A DNA stretch of 64,000 nucleotides from Escherichia coli (GTDB lineage Bacteria > Pseudomonadota > Gammaproteobacteria > Enterobacterales > Enterobacteriaceae): the NCBI RefSeq assembly GCF_048403405.1, contig NZ_CP183129.1; one strand, given 5' to 3'. The notes under the pieces are model-generated. The model did no database searches and was not told the DNA's origin. It was given only the letters and a program-made list of their open reading frames with translations. Below, one piece after another: positions 28,740 through 53,587 of the stretch; position 1 is the first letter of the stretch, and each line of letters opens with the position of its first letter. A program made the position numbers and the translations under genes.

Positions 28740-28942
28740 AACCTCACTCCCAGCGGACGACGGCGACGTCGGGTTGTCCCCAGTACCGACTCCGCATCAT
28801 TGATCGCCCGGTTAAGCTCATCCAGAGAAGCCGCCGTATATTCAATTCTGCGACCATCTTTCTGGACAGACACCACCCGTTTACCGGTTAATAAATCAAG
28901 GCGCGCCTGACGCAGCGCCTGCAGTTCAGCGACTGTAACCAT
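28736..28942 (-). CDS. W: Head-tail joining protein W
   Basis: 68 aa [51 protein letters not shown]... Confidence 0.85.
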   Translation of the reverse strand: MVTVAELQALRQARLDLLTGKRVVSVQKDGRRIEYTAASLDELNRAINDAESVLGTTRRRRRPLGVRL

Positions 28943-30854
28943 TCACTCCTCCGGACAGCTTCGCTGCCAGTTCTTTAAGGGTTGGCCGGGTCGTCTCTTC
29001 TTCCCGGGATTTTGCCAGTACAGCCAGATCAAGCTGCCAGCGTTGCACGGACACACGTAATGCCGCATAGGCATACACCAGGCAGTCCAGCGCTTCGTTA
29101 CGCCGCTTTTTGTTATCCCACAGCAGACGCATCTTTCCTTTTTCCCACTTCTCCACAAGCTCTTCCGCGACCAGTTGCTGCGCCTCTGTCTGCGAAAAAA
29201 TCTCCGGATCATCAGGAAAACGGATGGCATACGACGTGGCTTCATCCGCAGGAGTGGGATCGGCTTTCATACGGGCATAGAGAATTTCTTTTGCGGTGTC
29301 CGTCCCCACTTCACACAGATACACGCCCCGCTGATTGCGGGTTTTCGGCATGGTGATCACCGGCTTGCCATAGACAGATGCGCCTTTTACCGGCAGCACC
29401 CGGAAAACACCGTGTTTTTTTGACCTCTGATAGACAATTTCACCATCGATCCCCCCGGTGTCCCAGCAGACACGGGAAATGGTCATTTCGGTGCCATCTG
29501 CATGGCAGTATTTTTTGTTGATCGCCGCATCCACACGTAACAGCGTCTCTTCCTCATCGGGACGGCCCATAATGATGATTTTATCCACCAGAAAAGCTTC
29601 CTCTCCCGGTGCCCATCCCCAGACATACATCTCAAAACGGTTTCGCTGCGAGTCAATGCCCGCCGTCAGATAAACCACCCGGGCTGGCACCGCCGCCGTG
29701 TAATGCACGACCTTATCCATCAGTACCTGGTGATCGAGTTTTTCGCCCACGGCCTCTTCCCAGGTCTCGCCCAGCGTGGTGTTCACAAAGGTTTTCAGGC
29801 CGTTGGGATCTTTCAGTGCATCCAGCCAGTCATAGACTATCTGTACCCAGGTGGTGAACGGACTGTACGCCGTCCAGATATGGAACGTGATGGAGCGCGG
29901 CGGCGGAATTTCATTATCCGCGGCGCTGAAAAACGTCAGACCGTCACGGGTCCACATCCCCGTGTTTTCACAGATCCACCGCCCGTTGCTCTGGTCAAGC
30001 TCAGACTGATGGATCACGCAGCCATGATGTTCACAGAGGTAGAAAACGCTTTCGGGGCTGTCCTTCTCCCATTTAAGGCCAAAAGGCGTGGATTCATCGC
30101 CAAATTTCAGATACTGCTCCTCCCCACAGTGTGGGCAGGGCACATAAAAACGCATGAAATGCGCCGACTCGTTGGCCGCTTTTTCGATCTGGCAGGTGCC
30201 TTTGATTTTAGGCGTCGAGCCGCGAATGGATTTGGGCCATACAGAGCCCTCAATACGTTTATCCCCAAGCAGGGTTGGCGACCCCTCTTTTTCGACATCC
30301 GGTTCGAACGAGGAAAGTTCGTCATAGCAGACCACGTCCACGGATTTTTCACGGTAGTTTTTAGCGGCAGCCCCGCCCAGGCACCAGAAGCCCACGCCCG
30401 ATGAAAAACGTTTCAGCGTGAGGGTATTATCACGATGTTTACGCCCAAACCACGGTGCAAGATCGAGTAAAACCGGCACATCCCTGATCGTGGGTTCCAC
30501 ATGAGATTTCATAAAATCTTCAGCAGCAGAATCCGTGGGCTGGAAAAGAAGGCTGTTGCGTGATTTATGCTCAATAAAATAAGCCTCCACTCCCAGCAAC
30601 ATCTTTGTATAACCAACACGGGCAGATTTAATCAGATTAACAGTGCGGATCCGGTCATTCCCCATGCTGTTCATGATGGCAACCTGAAACGGCAGTGTTT
30701 CCCACCGCCCCGGGGTGTAAGATGACTCTTTCGGAAGGTAATAATGTCGATCTGCCCACTGAACTGTCGTCAGAGGGACAGGAATTTTTAGCGCAAGGAG
30801 GCCGGTTGCTATCGCTCCTGCAGAATTAGCCGCCCTCAGTTCGTCTGAAATCAT
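28926..30854 (-). CDS. A: Terminase large subunit A (start set at internal M near the Nu1 stop; track ORF extends to 30896)
   Basis: ...[58 protein letters not shown]... lambda gpA-like over the whole length. Confidence 0.9.
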
Positions 30855-31374
30855 CAATCCACCTGCGCACATTCTCACCGGCTTCAGAAGCCACATCGGA
30901 TGCTTTCGCGATTTCAGTTTTCACAGCATCAAGATGTACGGGTGATATATCAGGGTATTTACGCTGCAGTGTCTGAGGGACACGGACAAGGATCCCTGAT
31001 ATATTCTGTGCCACTCGCTGAAAGATGTAGGTAAATAACTCCGTCTCGAGGACAAGGCCTTCCTCACGAGCATTTTTCAGCTCCTGTGCATCGGCCTGTG
31101 CCTTCGTCAGTCGGTAACGTTCGTAATCAATGGTGCAGGGCTGAAGGTCTGATTCGCTGGCAGCCCTCAAATCCTCGATCTCTTTACGGAGTTTTTCGTT
31201 TTCAATATCAGCTTCCCTCTGCGCATACCACTGAATGGCAGCAGTTGTATCAAAAACTGATTCAGTCCCTTTCCCTCCACCAGAAACTAGTGGTAACCCC
31301 TGACTCTGCCAGGCGGTGATGGTCCTGACATCAACGCCAAAAATATCGGCCAGTTTTTTCTTATTGACGTTCAT
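30826..31374 (-). CDS. nu1: Terminase small subunit Nu1
   Basis: 182 aa [36 protein letters not shown]..., lambda Nu1-like winged HTH. Confidence 0.9.
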
Positions 31375-31543
31375 ACACTCCCCCGGGAACCAGAAAGGAT
31401 CTGAAAATGGCGTTTTCTAACAAAAACAGCCTTTGTCAGATCCTTTTATATTTTTAAAATTCTATTGATAATCAATCAGTTAAAAAGAAGAAGAACGGAT
31501 CTGATTTTTCCCTAAAAATTTTCATAAATAGCGAAAACCCGCG

Positions 31544-31555
31544 AGGTCGCCGCCC
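31544..31555 (-). promoter_or_regulatory. cosN cohesive-end site (GGGCGGCGACCT on the late strand)
   Basis: + strand aggtcgccgccc = reverse complement of the lambda 12-nt cohesive end, about 190 bp upstream of Nu1. Confidence 0.85.
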
Positions 31556-31761
31556 CGTAACCGGTCGGATCGCCGGAAAGGACCCACGAAATGATAATTA
31601 TTATCATCTATATAAGGTTTATCACAACATGTGTGTACGCCATCAAACCACGAGAAATAATCAATTATGACGCAGGTATCGTATTAATTGATCTGCGTCA
31701 AATTAACGTAAAAGCAACTTCAGATAATACAAATCAGCAACACTGAATATGGGGAAACATT

Positions 31762-31947
31762 ATGTCATCAAAGAACAGAACCCGCAGAACAACAACCCGC
31801 AACATCCGATTTCCAAACCAGATGATTGAACAAATTAACATCGCTCTTGATCTGAAAGGTTCAGGAAACTTTTCAGCGTGGGTTATTGAAGCCTGCAGAA
31901 GAAGGCTGTCAACAGAGAGTTCGGGTATGAATTACATAATTAAGTAA
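31762..31947 (+). CDS. Small DNA-binding-like protein (YlcI/YnfO, DUF3950-like)
   Basis: 61 aa MSSKNRTRRTTTRNIRFPNQMIEQINIALDLKGSGNFSAWVIEACRRRL...; family call from memory of prophage homologs. Confidence 0.5.
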   Translation: MSSKNRTRRTTTRNIRFPNQMIEQINIALDLKGSGNFSAWVIEACRRRLSTESSGMNYIIK

Positions 31948-32570
31948 CATGGTGTTCACAGAACACGCAGTTACCGGACACATCAGTTTTCCATTCGCTC
32001 CCTGGCAGTACAGGCTTCCCCTCTGACGGGATAGCCTGAAAAAATAACACAGAAAATTATTTGTTATAATTAATATAACTTACTCAAAAAAAAGCGACGA
32101 GAAAATCAGCATCAACGAACAATAAGCGCCAATACGTGATAACAAATGGCAGCCATATTTATCTGCAGTATAAGCAATGGACAGGATAACCACTCCAGAA
32201 ACCGTCAGCATAAAATCCATTTGAACTTCCCCGGACAAAATCGACTCATCTAAAGATTTACAGCTCTTTTTATTATCAATATGTTAAAAGTAAAATAAAC
32301 AGATGTTCAATAACACGAATACAAAAACGTGCTGAAATTCAATGAATCCATTTCTGTGTCATCAATTAATAGTGATAAACATCCGGCTTCTTCCACCATC
32401 GCACCGGACAGGCGACTATGAGGGGACAACGCCGCGCTCCGTTAACGCGGTAAACCCCGGTGTGTGTCGTTTTTGATTATCCCCGCACACTCGCGCAGAG
32501 GAGTCTCCCTGTCGGGCTGCGGTCTCTGTTAATGCGGGGATACGGCGACAATACCGCGCATCAGCAAAAC

Positions 32571-33044
32571 CTATTTCAGGCACTGAGTGCGGATATAGTC
32601 CTGCGCCCCTTCCAGCTGCTTCTGCATCAGCATCAACCGTTCTCTGAGAGTGAAATAATCCCGTTCAGCGGTGTCTGCCAGTTGGGGGCCGGTTGTATTA
32701 TCCACGCGGGCGGTGCCGGTGGCTTCACGCACGGGACCTGGACAGGTGGCGTTGATACGCAGGCGCTTACGACCAGCGGCAACGTCAGCGCGAAGAGTTT
32801 CATTTTCAGCTCTCGCATCGGCTAATTCCCTCGAGTATTTTGCATCGAGCGCAGCAACATCGCGCTGGCGCACCTGCATATCAGTAATGGTTGCGTTCGC
32901 CAGCTTCAGTTCACTGGCTTTGTTATCGCGCTGCGCTTTGTAGGTAATCGCGTTATCACGGTAATGGTCTGTTGCCATCCACAGCGCTCCACAGGCCACC
33001 AGCAGAATAACGATAAACGCGGAAAGCATTCGGTTTATGTTCAC
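32571..33044 (-). CDS. Rz: Spanin inner-membrane subunit Rz
   Basis: 157 aa; ...[45 protein letters not shown]...[15 protein letters not shown]... lambda Rz-like. Confidence 0.9.
32633..32818 (-). CDS. Rz1: Spanin outer-membrane lipoprotein Rz1 (nested in Rz, +1 frame)
   Basis: 61 aa [61 protein letters not shown]; lipobox LVVSAC, Pro-rich. Confidence 0.85.
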
Positions 33045-33172
33045 CCCAGCAGCCCCGACGAAGACAACATCATCCAGGCCATGGAAAGAAAAAGAGCAAC
33101 CAGCATTAGTGAAAATGAAATGCCGACAATTACACAGAGGATCTTCGCCAGCGTTATGAGTTTGTCTGACAT
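33041..33172 (-). CDS. Small membrane protein (43 aa) coupled to the Rz start
   Basis: [52 protein letters not shown]; single TM helix. Confidence 0.5.
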
Positions 33173-33186
33173 GCTTAATCCTCCCT

Positions 33187-33369
33187 TCACGATTTCAACG
33201 CAATGACCAGTTTTGCCAGCCCATACAGCATCGGGGACACAGCAACACCGACCGCCACCCACTTAATGGCAAAAGCCAGTGCTCTGCTGATGTCATCAGT
33301 TACAGGCGCTTTCAGTTCAAGGCCGTTTTTCATAGTCAACCTCAACAGAATTCGTTTATACTTTTCCAT
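33187..33369 (-). CDS. Small membrane protein (~60 aa)
   Basis: [70 protein letters not shown]-terminal TM helix. Confidence 0.5.
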
Positions 33370-33402
33370 GTTCTCCCTTGCCTTATCCAAGGTCAGAAAC
33401 AC

Positions 33403-33437
33403 AAAACCCCGCTTGCAGCCAACAAACGGGGTTTTTA
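33403..33437. terminator. Bidirectional-looking intrinsic terminator between endolysin and downstream small genes
   Basis: aaaaccccg...cggggttttt with flanking A and T runs. Confidence 0.55.
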
Positions 33438-33525
33438 CTTTTATTCACTTAGGTTTTGCCAGTTCTCAGGATTTCGTGTTATCCGTCCGCATTAGCCAAC
33501 GTCATTTTTCAACAAAATATTCTGC

Positions 33526-34059
33526 TTATTTGTCAATTCCCCAGCACGCCAGCGCGCTCTCCTGGTCACGCCGTGAGACCTGTCCATAGCAGTTATTTGA
33601 ACGAATACGGCAGTCTCTGCCACCGTCCTTAATCCACCAGCGAATCGCCTCACATGCTCCCCTGCGATCGCCAGCATTAATTCGTCTGTAAAACGTCGAC
33701 GGGAAACACTTACCGGGACCAATGTTGTACGGACAGAATGACGCGATCCCCGCTTTCTGGGGTTCGGTCAATGGCACTTTGATGTTTTTCTCCACCCATG
33801 CCAGCGCCTTATCACGCTCAATGGCGTTAACCCGGTCGCATTTTTCCTTCGACAACTTCATGCCCGGAACGACAGGTTTGCCATCCACCAGGATGGCACC
33901 GCGGCAGATGGTCCAGATACCCGCGCCATCACGGTATGCCGTGGTGTGGTTACCTTCCTTTTCATCCAGAAACTGGTCGAGAATGTCAGGCGCAGGCGCA
34001 CCAGCGGCAATCAGCGCCAGAACGGCAGCCGACAGGCCGTATCTGATTTTTGCGTTCAT
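33526..34059 (-). CDS. R: SAR endolysin (GH24 lysozyme, R)
   Basis: 177 aa; N-terminal signal-anchor YGLSAAVLALIAAGA, catalytic E-x8-D-x5-T (EGNHTTAYRDGAGIWT). Confidence 0.85.
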   Translation of the reverse strand: MNAKIRYGLSAAVLALIAAGAPAPDILDQFLDEKEGNHTTAYRDGAGIWTICRGAILVDGKPVVPGMKLSKEKCDRVNAIERDKALAWVEKNIKVPLTEPQKAGIASFCPYNIGPGKCFPSTFYRRINAGDRRGACEAIRWWIKDGGRDCRIRSNNCYGQVSRRDQESALACWGIDK

Positions 34060-34164: not shown

Positions 34165-34437
34165 ATGGACAATAACACCATTTCTCTACAGGAGTTGCTC
34201 GACAGCATTTCCAGGCTTCGGGAAGACGTGAATACCCTTACCGTCGCCTTCTCATATCTGGCATTCTCAATTCCAAGGGAACAGATGCAATCAACGCTGG
34301 CATCAATCCAGTTTGAATCATGCAATCCCAAATGGTCTCAGGAACAACAAGACTCTTTCAGGCGGCTTGCTGTATTACTGGATGAAAAATATGCTGGTAA
34401 AATTACCATTTCGGCGGACTCTTCAGAGAACCCGTAA
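34165..34437 (+). CDS. Hypothetical protein, opposite strand inside the lysis cassette
   Basis: 90 aa ORF with GAGGA RBS 7 nt upstream of ATG; 3' end overlaps the convergent gene 34403..34747. Confidence 0.35.
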   Translation: MDNNTISLQELLDSISRLREDVNTLTVAFSYLAFSIPREQMQSTLASIQFESCNPKWSQEQQDSFRRLAVLLDEKYAGKITISADSSENP

Positions 34438-34751: not shown

Positions 34752-34967
34752 TTACTCTCCCCGTGCAGCCTTACGACGGTCCTCTCTGATTTTGAAATAC
34801 AGGTTAGTCAGATATGTCAGCAGCCCAAACAGCAGACTCCCCAGCACGCCTATTGCCGCCCACTGAGACGGGGAAACCCTGTCCAGCAACTGCAGGAACC
34901 AGTAGCCCGTTCCCACCGCTGACGTGGTGTATGACACACCTGTTGTGATTTTTTCCATCTGGTACAT
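34752..34967 (-). CDS. S: Pinholin S (phage 21 S21-type, dual start)
   Basis: [71 protein letters not shown]; two TM helices, M1/M4 dual-start motif. Confidence 0.85.
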
Positions 34968-35117
34968 ACCCCGTCTCCCGTTATCCGGAAGCTGACAACA
35001 ATAAAAAAAGCCACCAGTTAAGTACTGATGGCTCTGATAACTCATGCAGGCATCTCAGACGACCCACTGACACTACCGGTGAGTTTAACGATACCTTCCA
35101 TTTGGCTGGCTCACTTT

Positions 35118-36971: not shown

Positions 36972-37199
36972 GAATCCTCCCGGGCGGGATAATGTTGTGA
37001 GTCAGATAAGGAGCAGGCTGAAGTCCGGAAGTTACAGGACAATGGCAGAAGGGAGACTACAGCCCGCAATTCGAAAAAGACCGCGCAGTTGCGCAGAGTG
37101 ATTACTATGGGGTATTATTCGCCAGCTGAAATATTACTTCACGTTTTATTGTTTATTCCTTGCCGCCCGCGTCTCCCAGCGCGGGCTTTTTTTGTCCAT

Positions 37200-37440
37200 A
37201 AGAAAGCCCCTCCGGAGAGGGGCTAAAGCCGCGTATCTGTATCATCATGCACATGGTGCCGGGTGCCTCCCGGTGAGTTCAGCCCGGTGCCACTAAACCC
37301 GCGTCATTCTCGTTTTGATAATCAGAGATTATACCGTCACCAGTCGCCCCTCCGCTCAGGGGGATTCACCATGCGAAATTTTTTTAACAAATGCCCAGTC
37401 TGACAGGCAACTGTCAACTTACTGAATTGTGAGCAACATA
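37200..37440. repeat. Structured repeat copy 1 (~240 bp) in the tRNA-to-nanS spacer
   Basis: Shares blocks aaagcccctccggagaggggct, catggtgccgggtgcctcccggtga, gcccctccgc.cagggggattcaccatgc, ctgaattgtgag with copy 2. Confidence 0.75.
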
Positions 37441-37685
37441 GCATTTAACGGGGAACCTGTTTTCTGCAGTAAAAAGGCCCACCGGAGCGGATGGGCCTGG
37501 AAGGATAGCGGTCATGTGATGCCGGTTTCCCGGTAACTCAGCACCGGTATCTGAGTCAACGTTTTCTCTACTGGGTCATTTCCGATACGCCCTGCCTGCT
37601 GACAGGCTTTCATCACATCTGAAAATATAGCACCCTGACTGATACTGTAGTACCTAAGGTTCCAGAAACTGTGATGTATCCGGCA

Positions 37686-37905
37686 CAGAAAAGCCCCTCC
37701 GGAGAGGGGCTGGAGAGTGGCGCTATGTGCCATTGCATGGTGCCGGGTGCCTCCCGGTGAATTCAGTACCAGCACCTGAATCCGCGATTATCCCATATAC
37801 CTACTCGCTGATTGCCCCTCCGCACAGGGGGATTCACCATGCCAGTTTCTTTTAACAAACTCCCCGCAAACCAGACAACAGTCAACCGCCTGAATTGTGA
37901 GACAT
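37686..37905. repeat. Structured repeat copy 2 (~220 bp)
   Basis: Paralogous to 37200-37440 with the same conserved hairpins. Confidence 0.75.
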
Positions 37906-37946: not shown

Positions 37947-38023
37947 TGGCGCGTTGTACTGGATTCGAACCAGTGACCGATTGCTTAGAAGGCAATTGCT
38001 CTGTCCGGCTGAGCTAACAACGC
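37947..38023 (-). tRNA. argO: tRNA-Arg (anticodon TCT)
   Basis: Clean cloverleaf read by hand: acceptor gcgttgt/acaacgc, D-stem gctc/gagc, anticodon loop cttctaa, T-loop ttcgaat, 3' CCA encoded. Confidence 0.85.
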
Positions 38024-38036
38024 AGGATACAGATAA

Positions 38037-38113
38037 TGGACCGCCTTCGGGGACCCGAACTCCGCGCAACCAGCTTCGAAGGCTGGCGCTCTTTCCTGAT
38101 GAGCTAATGGCGG
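38037..38113 (-). tRNA. tRNA-like gene, possibly tRNA-Arg (anticodon TCG), imperfect stems
   Basis: Cloverleaf can be drawn (anticodon loop cttcgaa) but acceptor and T stems each have a mismatch and the T-loop lacks the usual A58. Confidence 0.5.
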
Positions 38114-38120
38114 TATGTGA

Positions 38121-38196
38121 TGGTGGCCCTTGCTGGATTTGAACCAGCGACCTGGCGATTATGAGTCGCTCGCTCTCACCACTGAGCTAAAGGGCC
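38121..38196 (-). tRNA. ileZ: tRNA-Ile2-type (anticodon CAT)
   Basis: ggccctttagctcagtggtgagagc...ctcataa...ggttcaaatccagcaagggccacca; closely resembles ileX-type tRNA. Confidence 0.85.
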
Positions 38197-45001: not shown

Positions 45002-45157
45002 TTACTCCTCAGGTTCGTAAGCTGTGAAGACAGCGACCTCCGTCTGGCCGGTTCGGATTCGTACCTCGCAGAGGTCTTTCCTCGTTACCAGTGCCGTCAC
45101 AATGACGGTTAAACAGATGACGATCAGGGCGATTAACATCGCCTTTTGCTGCTTCAT
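45002..45157 (-). CDS. hokD: Hok/Gef-family type I toxin (HokD/RelF-like, 51 aa)
   Basis: MKQQKAMLIALIVICLTVIVTALVTRKDLCEVRIRTGQTEVAVFTAYEPEE matches HokD; track ORF has an in-frame upstream extension. Confidence 0.85.
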   Translation of the reverse strand: MKQQKAMLIALIVICLTVIVTALVTRKDLCEVRIRTGQTEVAVFTAYEPEE

Positions 45158-45394
45158 AGCCTGCTTCCCCTTGCCTTTCGGCACGTAAGAGGCTAACCTA
45201 CATTTGTGAGACATAGATTGGGCCTCAGATTAATGTTAAGCGTCTTGCAGGACGCGAAATGTTAACTGGGGCTTTTCTCTATCTGCCTTTCAGTGTTCAT
45301 GCCTGAGACAGATAGCCTCAAGCACCCGCAGCCATTCTACTTAACTCACGTCACCTCGCCAATATGAAATCAATCAGAAAGGTGATCCATAAAA

Positions 45395-53529: not shown

Positions 53530-53587
53530 TTTCTGGTGACATTTGGCGGTATCAGTTTTACTCCGTGACTGCTCTGCCGCCCTTTTT
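53530..53587 (+). ncRNA. dicF: DicF small RNA (cell-division inhibitor sRNA)
   Basis: tttctggtgacatttggcggtatcagttttactccgtgactgctctgccgccc + T-run matches the remembered DicF sequence; lies upstream of dicB. Confidence 0.7.

Follow-up and report, generated by a model that had tools for sequence, protein, structure and literature searches.

Does the short hydrophobic reading frame that lies between the lysis genes and the cohesive-end site of an Escherichia coli lambdoid prophage encode a protein, or is it an accident of T-rich DNA? The prophage in question is lambda-like, with its late genes on the minus strand, and lies in a stretch of 64,000 nucleotides of E. coli DNA that was analysed as a whole and is referred to here as the window. 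Its lysis cassette is headed by a gene annotated in RefSeq as a class II holin of 71 aa (34752-35045, minus strand). A YdfR-family gene lies between the holin and the lysozyme gene (33526-34059), both on the minus strand, and the cassette ends with the i-spanin gene Rz (32571-33044, minus strand; Pfam Phage_lysis, E=1.9e-49), within which Rz1 is embedded (32633-32818, minus strand). Directly after Rz comes a sharply bounded, GC-rich element of about 175 nt (32378-32555, minus strand), and Rz with this element lies upstream of the ORF of interest. On the far side of the ORF, and convergent with it, is a ylcI/ynfO-family gene (31762-31947, plus strand) for a 61-aa, RHH-like DUF3950 protein, followed by a cosN site identical to the lambda 12-nt cohesive end (GGGCGGCGACCT; 31544-31555, minus strand), a Nu1-like gene for the small terminase subunit (30826-31374, minus strand) and the gene for the large terminase (28926-30896, minus strand).

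Several other small genes of this neighbourhood deserve mention. Two ORFs on the minus strand between lysozyme and Rz, one of 43 aa with a single hydrophobic helix (33041-33172, WP_001280932.1) and one of 60 aa with a hydrophobic C-terminus (33187-33369, WP_021566721.1), are both annotated as hypothetical, and because of them the lysis cassette can be said to carry several hypothetical small membrane proteins. A third hypothetical ORF of 90 aa (34165-34437, plus strand, WP_000369850.1) covers part of the YdfR-family gene, at its 3′ end, in antisense orientation and may be an overlapping gene or an over-prediction. The YlcI/YnfO product has a sequence suggestive of a DNA-binding ribbon-helix-helix fold and a weak PHROG match to HicB-like antitoxins (E=0.012).

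The ORF itself (32080-32220, minus strand) extends from an ATG at 32220 to a TAA stop at 32082-32080 and comprises 46 codons plus the stop; its product is MDFMLTVSGVVILSIAYTADKYGCHLLSRIGAYCSLMLIFSSLFFE. A Shine-Dalgarno-like GGGGAAG (32226-32232, minus strand) ends 5 nt before the ATG, and a TTG further upstream in the same stop-to-stop frame, at 32238, would give a product of 52 aa if used. Coordinates, product and Shine-Dalgarno-like sequence agree with the preliminary description, which was mistaken, however, in regarding the ORF as unannotated. RefSeq catalogues it as hypothetical protein WP_000347013.1, with exactly these coordinates in 100%-identical genomes; PGAP annotates it so in E. 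coli 118UI, which is identical to the window over 1191 bp, and the same accession is annotated in O157:H7. The product also has a UniRef entry, A0A066T8Z3, seen on at least 1000 contigs. The ORF is thus not new to annotation, and PGAP's independent call of the same frame counts in favour of a genuine gene. GenBank records of phages that carry the ORF leave it unannotated.

Comparison with 434 and DLP12 indicates how the ORF came to lie at this site. Two blocks are common to 434, DLP12 and the window, namely the GC-rich element (32375-32560) and the N-terminus of ylcI together with cos (31896-31470), and the gap between them measures about 56 bp in 434 and DLP12 versus about 480 bp here. BLAST block boundaries and base composition delimit a mosaic insert of about 480 bp at 31897-32374, of low GC content (0.31-0.39), which includes the ORF; the fraction of GC is 0.31-0.39 across 32050-32424 compared to 0.51-0.62 in the region of Rz and the GC-rich element. 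The insert replaces the C-terminal end of ylcI, and since its boundary falls inside that gene, the C-terminus of the encoded protein is unlike that of the 434/DLP12 version. The ORF segment is therefore inserted between genes that are adjacent in relatives and deviates in base composition, two characteristics by which morons are recognized. The bor/iss gene, found upstream of the GC-rich element in 434 and DLP12, is absent from the interval between Rz and cos in the window.

The surroundings of the ORF are constant on one side and variable on the other. The GC-rich element, where complete, is located 340 nt upstream of the ORF start codon in every ORF-bearing locus, and in most of these loci ylcI is found in convergent orientation, about 458 nt downstream of the ORF. 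The terminase genes beyond ylcI vary, being either of the Nu1/cos type or an HNH gene with a P27-like TerS gene, and one variant of the cassette (lineage B, see below) is also found in loci that lack ylcI (L086 and L087), where packaging genes in the same orientation follow it directly. On its 3′ side the GC-rich element ends in a mosaic junction, beyond which at least 19 different downstream flanks were found; they include a gene for a lipoprotein of about 110 aa, a reverse-strand gene of 150 aa, ylcI directly and cos directly. In Sakai prophage Sp14 (L292, 10474-10788), the interval from Rz to the terminase genes holds the virulence regulator gene pchC. Such alternative cargo shares its insertion point and low GC content with the ORF; the encoded proteins are nevertheless unrelated to the ORF product and of different size and class, PchC being a cytoplasmic transcription regulator. 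On the evidence of these sequence comparisons, the interval of the window from Rz and the GC-rich element to the packaging genes (31500-32570) is a cargo hot spot, and because at least 19 flanks, pchC among them, occupy the slot, the ORF segment is one of many alternative cargo modules. The lipoprotein of about 110 aa has a TonB-C-like sequence; loci L097, L093 and L170 of IMG/VR are examples with alternative cargo, and the post-Rz slot of VT1-Sakai holds nothing.

The GC-rich element that precedes the slot is a more unusual object than the ORF. Of 5426 complete E. coli genomes, 4144 contain it, some with as many as 11 copies; 398 phage records have it too, among them Stx1 and Stx2 phages, 434 and Salmonella phage ES18, and copies from Stx2 phages and ES18 include some of 60-80% identity. 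It is mostly unannotated. RNAalifold predicted 37 base pairs from 74 distinct copies. Variation consists mainly of C to U changes opposite G, and 99% of the cells are paired on the late-gene strand versus 78% on the other strand, a comparison biased by the fact that the structure was predicted on the late-gene strand. At one pair, GC is replaced by AU in 15 sequences. The element may be a structured RNA, or one that acts in cis, within the late transcript; it is an independent and very widespread unit, a neighbour rather than a proven part of the ORF cassette. The Pas sRNAs (Zhu, Shabalina & Storz 2026 preprint) were considered for the post-Rz site and dismissed, as they lie near Q and the holin gene, not after Rz. 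A search of Rfam at E≤1 over 30800-33600 gave no match for either the ORF or the GC-rich element, nor any family of antitoxin RNAs. RNAs detected elsewhere in the window at Rfam gathering scores are a sok antitoxin, two copies of STnc100, IS009, DicF and three tRNAs; they are located on the minus strand at 45152-45327 (sok), 37194-37403, 37681-37871, 7671-7869 and 37950-38196, and on the plus strand at 53531-53582. The sok gene implies a hok/sok type I module in the window.

How much can be concluded from the size and hydrophobicity of the predicted product? The ORF is contained in a segment of 428 nt with 36% GC, and in 5000 dinucleotide shuffles of this segment the longest ORF starting with ATG measured 45±16 codons, so that 46 codons or more are expected with P=0.43. 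The coding strand of the ORF is 43% T, and the second codon position 45% T. Hydrophobicity of the product (GRAVY 1.09) is also what stop-free shuffles of the ORF yield (1.02±0.35, P=0.42), and the arrangement in two hydrophobic segments is only marginally unusual against such shuffles (P=0.076). Length and hydrophobicity consequently carry no weight, because the composition of T-rich, low-GC DNA produces both by chance. Calls of a “small hydrophobic ORF” in T-rich spacers are worthless on their own, and it is only the comparative signal that sets this ORF apart. The resemblance to toxins put forward in the preliminary description came down to this same hydrophobicity, for which base composition accounts, and families of toxins and antitoxin RNAs gave no match; the suggestion is not supported.

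The comparative signal was obtained from three lineages: A, the type found in the window; B, represented by P0015; and C, represented by SHP24 (WP_000523825.1). The product of lineage B has 4 amino-acid differences, and the ORF of lineage C is 81.5% identical to that of lineage A at the nucleotide level and 71% at the amino-acid level. The preliminary description had named the absence of a conserved frame in relatives as grounds for rejection; on inspection the frame is kept, and each of the three lineages has an ATG, a GGGGAA core and 45-46 uninterrupted codons. The GGGGAA core is retained even though adjacent bases differ. Between lineages A and C, identity is 0.82 with one gap in the ORF, 0.82 in the ylcI CDS, 0.77 in the upstream spacer, and 0.63 with three gap openings in the downstream spacer of 135 nt. 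The sole indel of the ORF among the three lineages affects a terminal run of eight or nine T, where the overlapping stop codons TGAGTAA absorb it.

Substitutions between lineages A and C (12 synonymous and 13 non-synonymous) give a dN/dS of 0.28 in the frame of the ORF by the Nei-Gojobori method, the lowest value of the six frames; the other five range from 0.59 to 1.86. A gene on the reverse strand in place of the ORF was rejected on this basis, the reverse frames having dN/dS of 0.6-1.9. When the 25 A-C changes were placed at random, a premature stop arose in 36% of trials and the frame remained open in 64%. The amino-acid replacements are conservative, since an equally good BLOSUM score was reached in 3.8% of random trials (P=0.038) and an equally small change in hydropathy in 2.8% (P=0.028); taken simply as a number, the amino-acid differences between A and C fall short of significance (P=0.17). 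The 81 full-length copies of lineage A represent 18 alleles with six variable sites in the ORF, of which four are synonymous, one is T18I and one changes the ATG to GTG, a codon that can also serve as a start. No other variant of the start codon was encountered. With branches pooled, 19 of about 38 substitutions are synonymous, compared to about 31% expected at the observed share of transitions (P about 0.012). None of 88 ORF copies surveyed contains an internal stop or a frameshift, and a few database variants (P0008, P0010) are frameshifted. Underlying these tests are about 38 substitutions and, in essence, a single comparison of some depth, almost all copies being at least 95% identical, so that the evidence for purifying selection on the peptide, as read from sequence, is moderate and limited by shallow divergence.

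The best-conserved stretch of the cassette is not the ORF but a non-coding, AT-rich block at 32265-32300, which is identical across the three lineages except for one C/G difference in lineage B, in surroundings that are 77% identical. A GATAAT hexamer resembling a -10 box was read by eye on the minus strand of this block, about 44 nt before the ATG and below the threshold of the scanner, and a promoter-like TTTACA-17-TATGTT on the plus strand (32257-32285; a consensus match only) overlaps it. These features suggest the block, 45-80 nt upstream of the ORF, as a candidate promoter or operator of the cassette. Scans for consensus sequences revealed no promoter or terminator for the ORF on the minus strand, no terminator-like site between Rz and the ORF on that strand, and none behind ylcI on the plus strand. 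As the ORF has the orientation of the late operon and no intrinsic terminator was found ahead of it, Q-antiterminated late transcripts should read through it, and late read-through is thus the default expectation. The mRNA region of the ORF folds slightly better than shuffled sequences (z=-1.9).

AlphaFold2 run on an alignment of four sequences predicted a helical hairpin for the product, with helices at residues 2-21 and 25-44 and a mean pLDDT of 89.5, a result to be read in the light of the tendency of AlphaFold2 to turn any hydrophobic peptide into helices. The hairpin turns tightly at Y22-G23-C24, and the loop includes K21-Y-G-C and R29. Invariant residues cluster in the loop and the second helix (ADKYG, LLSRIGAYC and LIFSSLFF). 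By the positive-inside rule, with K21 and R29 flanking the loop and D2 and E46 at the ends, the model would place the basic loop (K21, H25, R29) in the cytoplasm and the acidic ends (D2, E46) in the periplasm.

A segment of 261 bp containing the ORF is present in 733 of 5426 complete E. coli genomes (about 13.5%), in 1-3 copies each and about 786 copies in all, nearly all of them at least 95% identical. Strains 118UI, VR50, ML35 and BEN2908 are among those whose cassette matches that of the window at 100% identity. Searches with tblastn retrieved the ORF from 2 of 50,697 phage records and from no plasmid, and 94-95 loci in IMG/VR contain it; a second scan of IMG/VR, based on the conserved C-terminal part of the peptide, led back to the same loci and to no divergent relatives. 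Among species representatives of GTDB, scanned with peptide patterns from the less conserved N-terminus, one contig with 100% identity was found. This is a contig of 7.7 kb from a genome labelled “MAG: Collinsella sp.” (Actinobacteria; L005, JAIJJM010000092.1), in which the ORF and its flanks are 100% identical to E. coli prophage DNA, and it is most likely a binning contaminant in the GTDB representative genome. When 1.84 billion protein representatives were searched exhaustively with a profile, no relatives emerged outside the E. coli family of the ORF, and this search, together with a word-indexed protein search, recovered only that family, its fragments and frameshift variants. The product matched nothing in Pfam, PHROG, NCBIfam or PADLOC at E≤1, and Foldseek against viral structures gave only non-significant, generic hairpins (best E=0.57). 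Neither the peptide sequence nor its accession was found in the literature searched. The sequence likewise does not appear in the supplements of Hücker 2017 (Sakai Ribo-seq), of the EDL933 TSS study and of the “Cryptic microproteome” study of Enterobacteriaceae smORFs, for whose strains carriage of the ORF is not established; Sakai prophages Sp10 and Sp14 are without it. As far as sequence searches reach, the ORF is an orphan that only lambdoid prophages of E. coli and E. coli phages carry.

Among known systems, the lambda morons bor and lom are closest. They too are accessory cargo of the lambdoid late region, and the ORF segment likewise is an insert relative to close relatives, of deviant composition, dispensable and patchy in distribution; dispensability of the ORF follows from its absence in most related phages. 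The preliminary description had placed the ORF where lambda carries bor, and as to the slot this is correct, since bor/iss lies in the Rz-to-cos interval in lambda, 434 and DLP12. Equivalence to bor did not hold up. Bor is a lipoprotein of about 97 aa with a lipobox, transcribed against the late operon, whereas the product of the ORF has 46 aa, lacks a lipobox (L-x-x-C) or signal peptidase II site and a match to Pfam Lambda_Bor, and is encoded in the direction of the late operon. A bor homologue was accordingly rejected for wrong strand, wrong size and the absence of both lipobox and domain. By analogy, the ORF is closest to a lambda-type moron in position and anatomy, its autonomous expression being putative.

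A holin was also considered. Like class II holins and pinholins (S21, 434 holin), the product has two predicted TM helices, and its gene adjoins the lysis cassette in the same orientation. It is, however, much shorter than the 71-aa holin of the cassette itself, ends in SSLFFE with no charged or basic C-terminal tail and no dual-start motif, and is encoded downstream of the spanins rather than upstream of the endolysin. The missing tail, the position, the lack of a family match in Pfam and PHROG and the class II holin already present at 34752-35045 led to rejection. AcrZ, MgrB, MgtS and SgrT are small inner-membrane regulators of E. coli of 30-50 aa, chromosomally encoded, mostly single-helix and with known partners. 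From general knowledge, the ORF product compares with them in size class, hydrophobicity and lack of an enzymatic domain, and differs in being prophage-borne and a predicted hairpin.

We assign a probability of roughly 0.6 to the reading that the ORF is a real gene for a small inner-membrane hairpin protein, located on a moron cassette and transcribed at least by late read-through. The main rival reading is that the ORF arose by chance in a T-rich, low-GC spacer, looks conserved because the cassette is young, and is called by gene finders ab initio. Several findings fit this account: 46 codons is the expected longest ORF in the segment, its hydrophobicity equals the compositional expectation, and random mutation to the extent of the A-C divergence would leave the frame open in nearly two thirds of cases. 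An orphan with no family and no relatives beyond E. coli prophages, missing from the supplements of three small-ORF, Ribo-seq and TSS studies (with the reservation on strain carriage given above), is also what such an accident would look like. It is the pattern of substitution that makes a chance ORF less likely. The frame of the ORF is the only one of six with a synonymous excess (pooled P about 0.01), amino acids tend to be replaced by similar ones (P about 0.03-0.04), the Shine-Dalgarno core and start codon are kept while neighbouring bases change, with GTG as the sole variant of the start, and indels pile up in the downstream spacer instead of the ORF.

Codon-phased substitutions inside the ORF are equally not expected if the functional unit were RNA or DNA, such as an sRNA, a leader, a prolongation of the post-Rz element at its 3′ side, or a spacer that regulates ylcI or late transcription, with the ORF incidental. 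The better conservation of the AT-rich non-coding block than of the ORF, the exact distance of 340 nt to the GC-rich element, the pairing of that element on the strand of the ORF (99% versus 78% of cells, with C to U opposite G in about 10 pairs) and the somewhat better folding of the region than shuffles (z=-1.9) speak for such a unit. Yet the element, found in 4144 genomes, is usually not accompanied by the ORF segment and ends abruptly ahead of it on the 3′ side, and Rfam returned no family; this is the most improbable of the readings considered. Hardly more probable is a module akin to type I toxin-antitoxin systems, in which antisense RNA would hold down translation of a membrane-depolarising peptide in lysogens. 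The antisense RNA could stem from read-through of ylcI or from a plus-strand transcript starting at 32257-32285 and pairing with a long 5′ leader. Like Hok/Gef, Ldr, TisB, Ibs, ShoB and ZorO, the ORF product is small (46 aa), hydrophobic (GRAVY 1.1), membrane-directed and prophage-encoded; on the plus strand, nothing resembling a terminator follows the convergent ylcI, and the promoter-like sequence overlaps the conserved AT-rich block. Moreover, the bona fide sok RNA at 45152-45327 in the same window indicates that type I modules travel on this prophage. Hok, Ldr, TisB and Ibs are single-helix peptides; the ORF product differs from type I toxins in its two predicted hydrophobic helices without a charged tail and shares no sequence similarity with Hok/Gef or other toxin families, nor does it match PADLOC. 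Further points against a type I module are the lack of an antitoxin RNA family at E≤1 in 30800-33600, the existence of the cassette without ylcI (L086/L087), and a folding z-score of merely -1.9 for the mRNA region. A more elaborate version, to which we attach very little probability, has the hairpin peptide act as effector in a prophage membrane-toxin or exclusion module of a new kind. Antisense RNA from ylcI or from a divergent promoter in the AT-rich block would keep it silent in lysogens, and late read-through behind the structured post-Rz RNA element would release it. If true, lambdoid prophages of E. coli would have a new family of type I-like toxins or abortive-infection proteins all of their own.

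To return to the preferred reading, a genuine orphan gene for a small membrane protein is moderately supported by the comparative evidence. Of the earlier proposal of a small membrane or toxin peptide, the membrane part thus stands, in that a small hydrophobic protein gene is probable from the frame, start codon and Shine-Dalgarno core kept in three lineages, the synonymous excess and the predicted hairpin; the toxin part is not supported. A low-GC moron cassette of about 480 bp would have been inserted in the recombination-prone slot between the post-Rz element and ylcI/cos. Late transcripts, antiterminated by Q, would run through the ORF, to which the AT-rich block possibly adds an autonomous promoter or operator, and the 46-residue product would form an inner-membrane hairpin of two hydrophobic helices. 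As a guess by analogy, its role may be that of a non-essential accessory at the level of the membrane, for example in superinfection exclusion or in modulation of membrane proteins of host or phage.

Such an ORF is ordinary for a lambdoid prophage and has no bearing on any long-standing open question. If real, it would represent one more small membrane protein among the accessory genes carried by lambdoid prophages of E. coli, those of O157:H7, O55:H7, O103 and UPEC/APEC strains included. Proteins of this type are frequently responsible for excluding superinfecting phages, for timing lysis or for modulating membrane proteins of the host.
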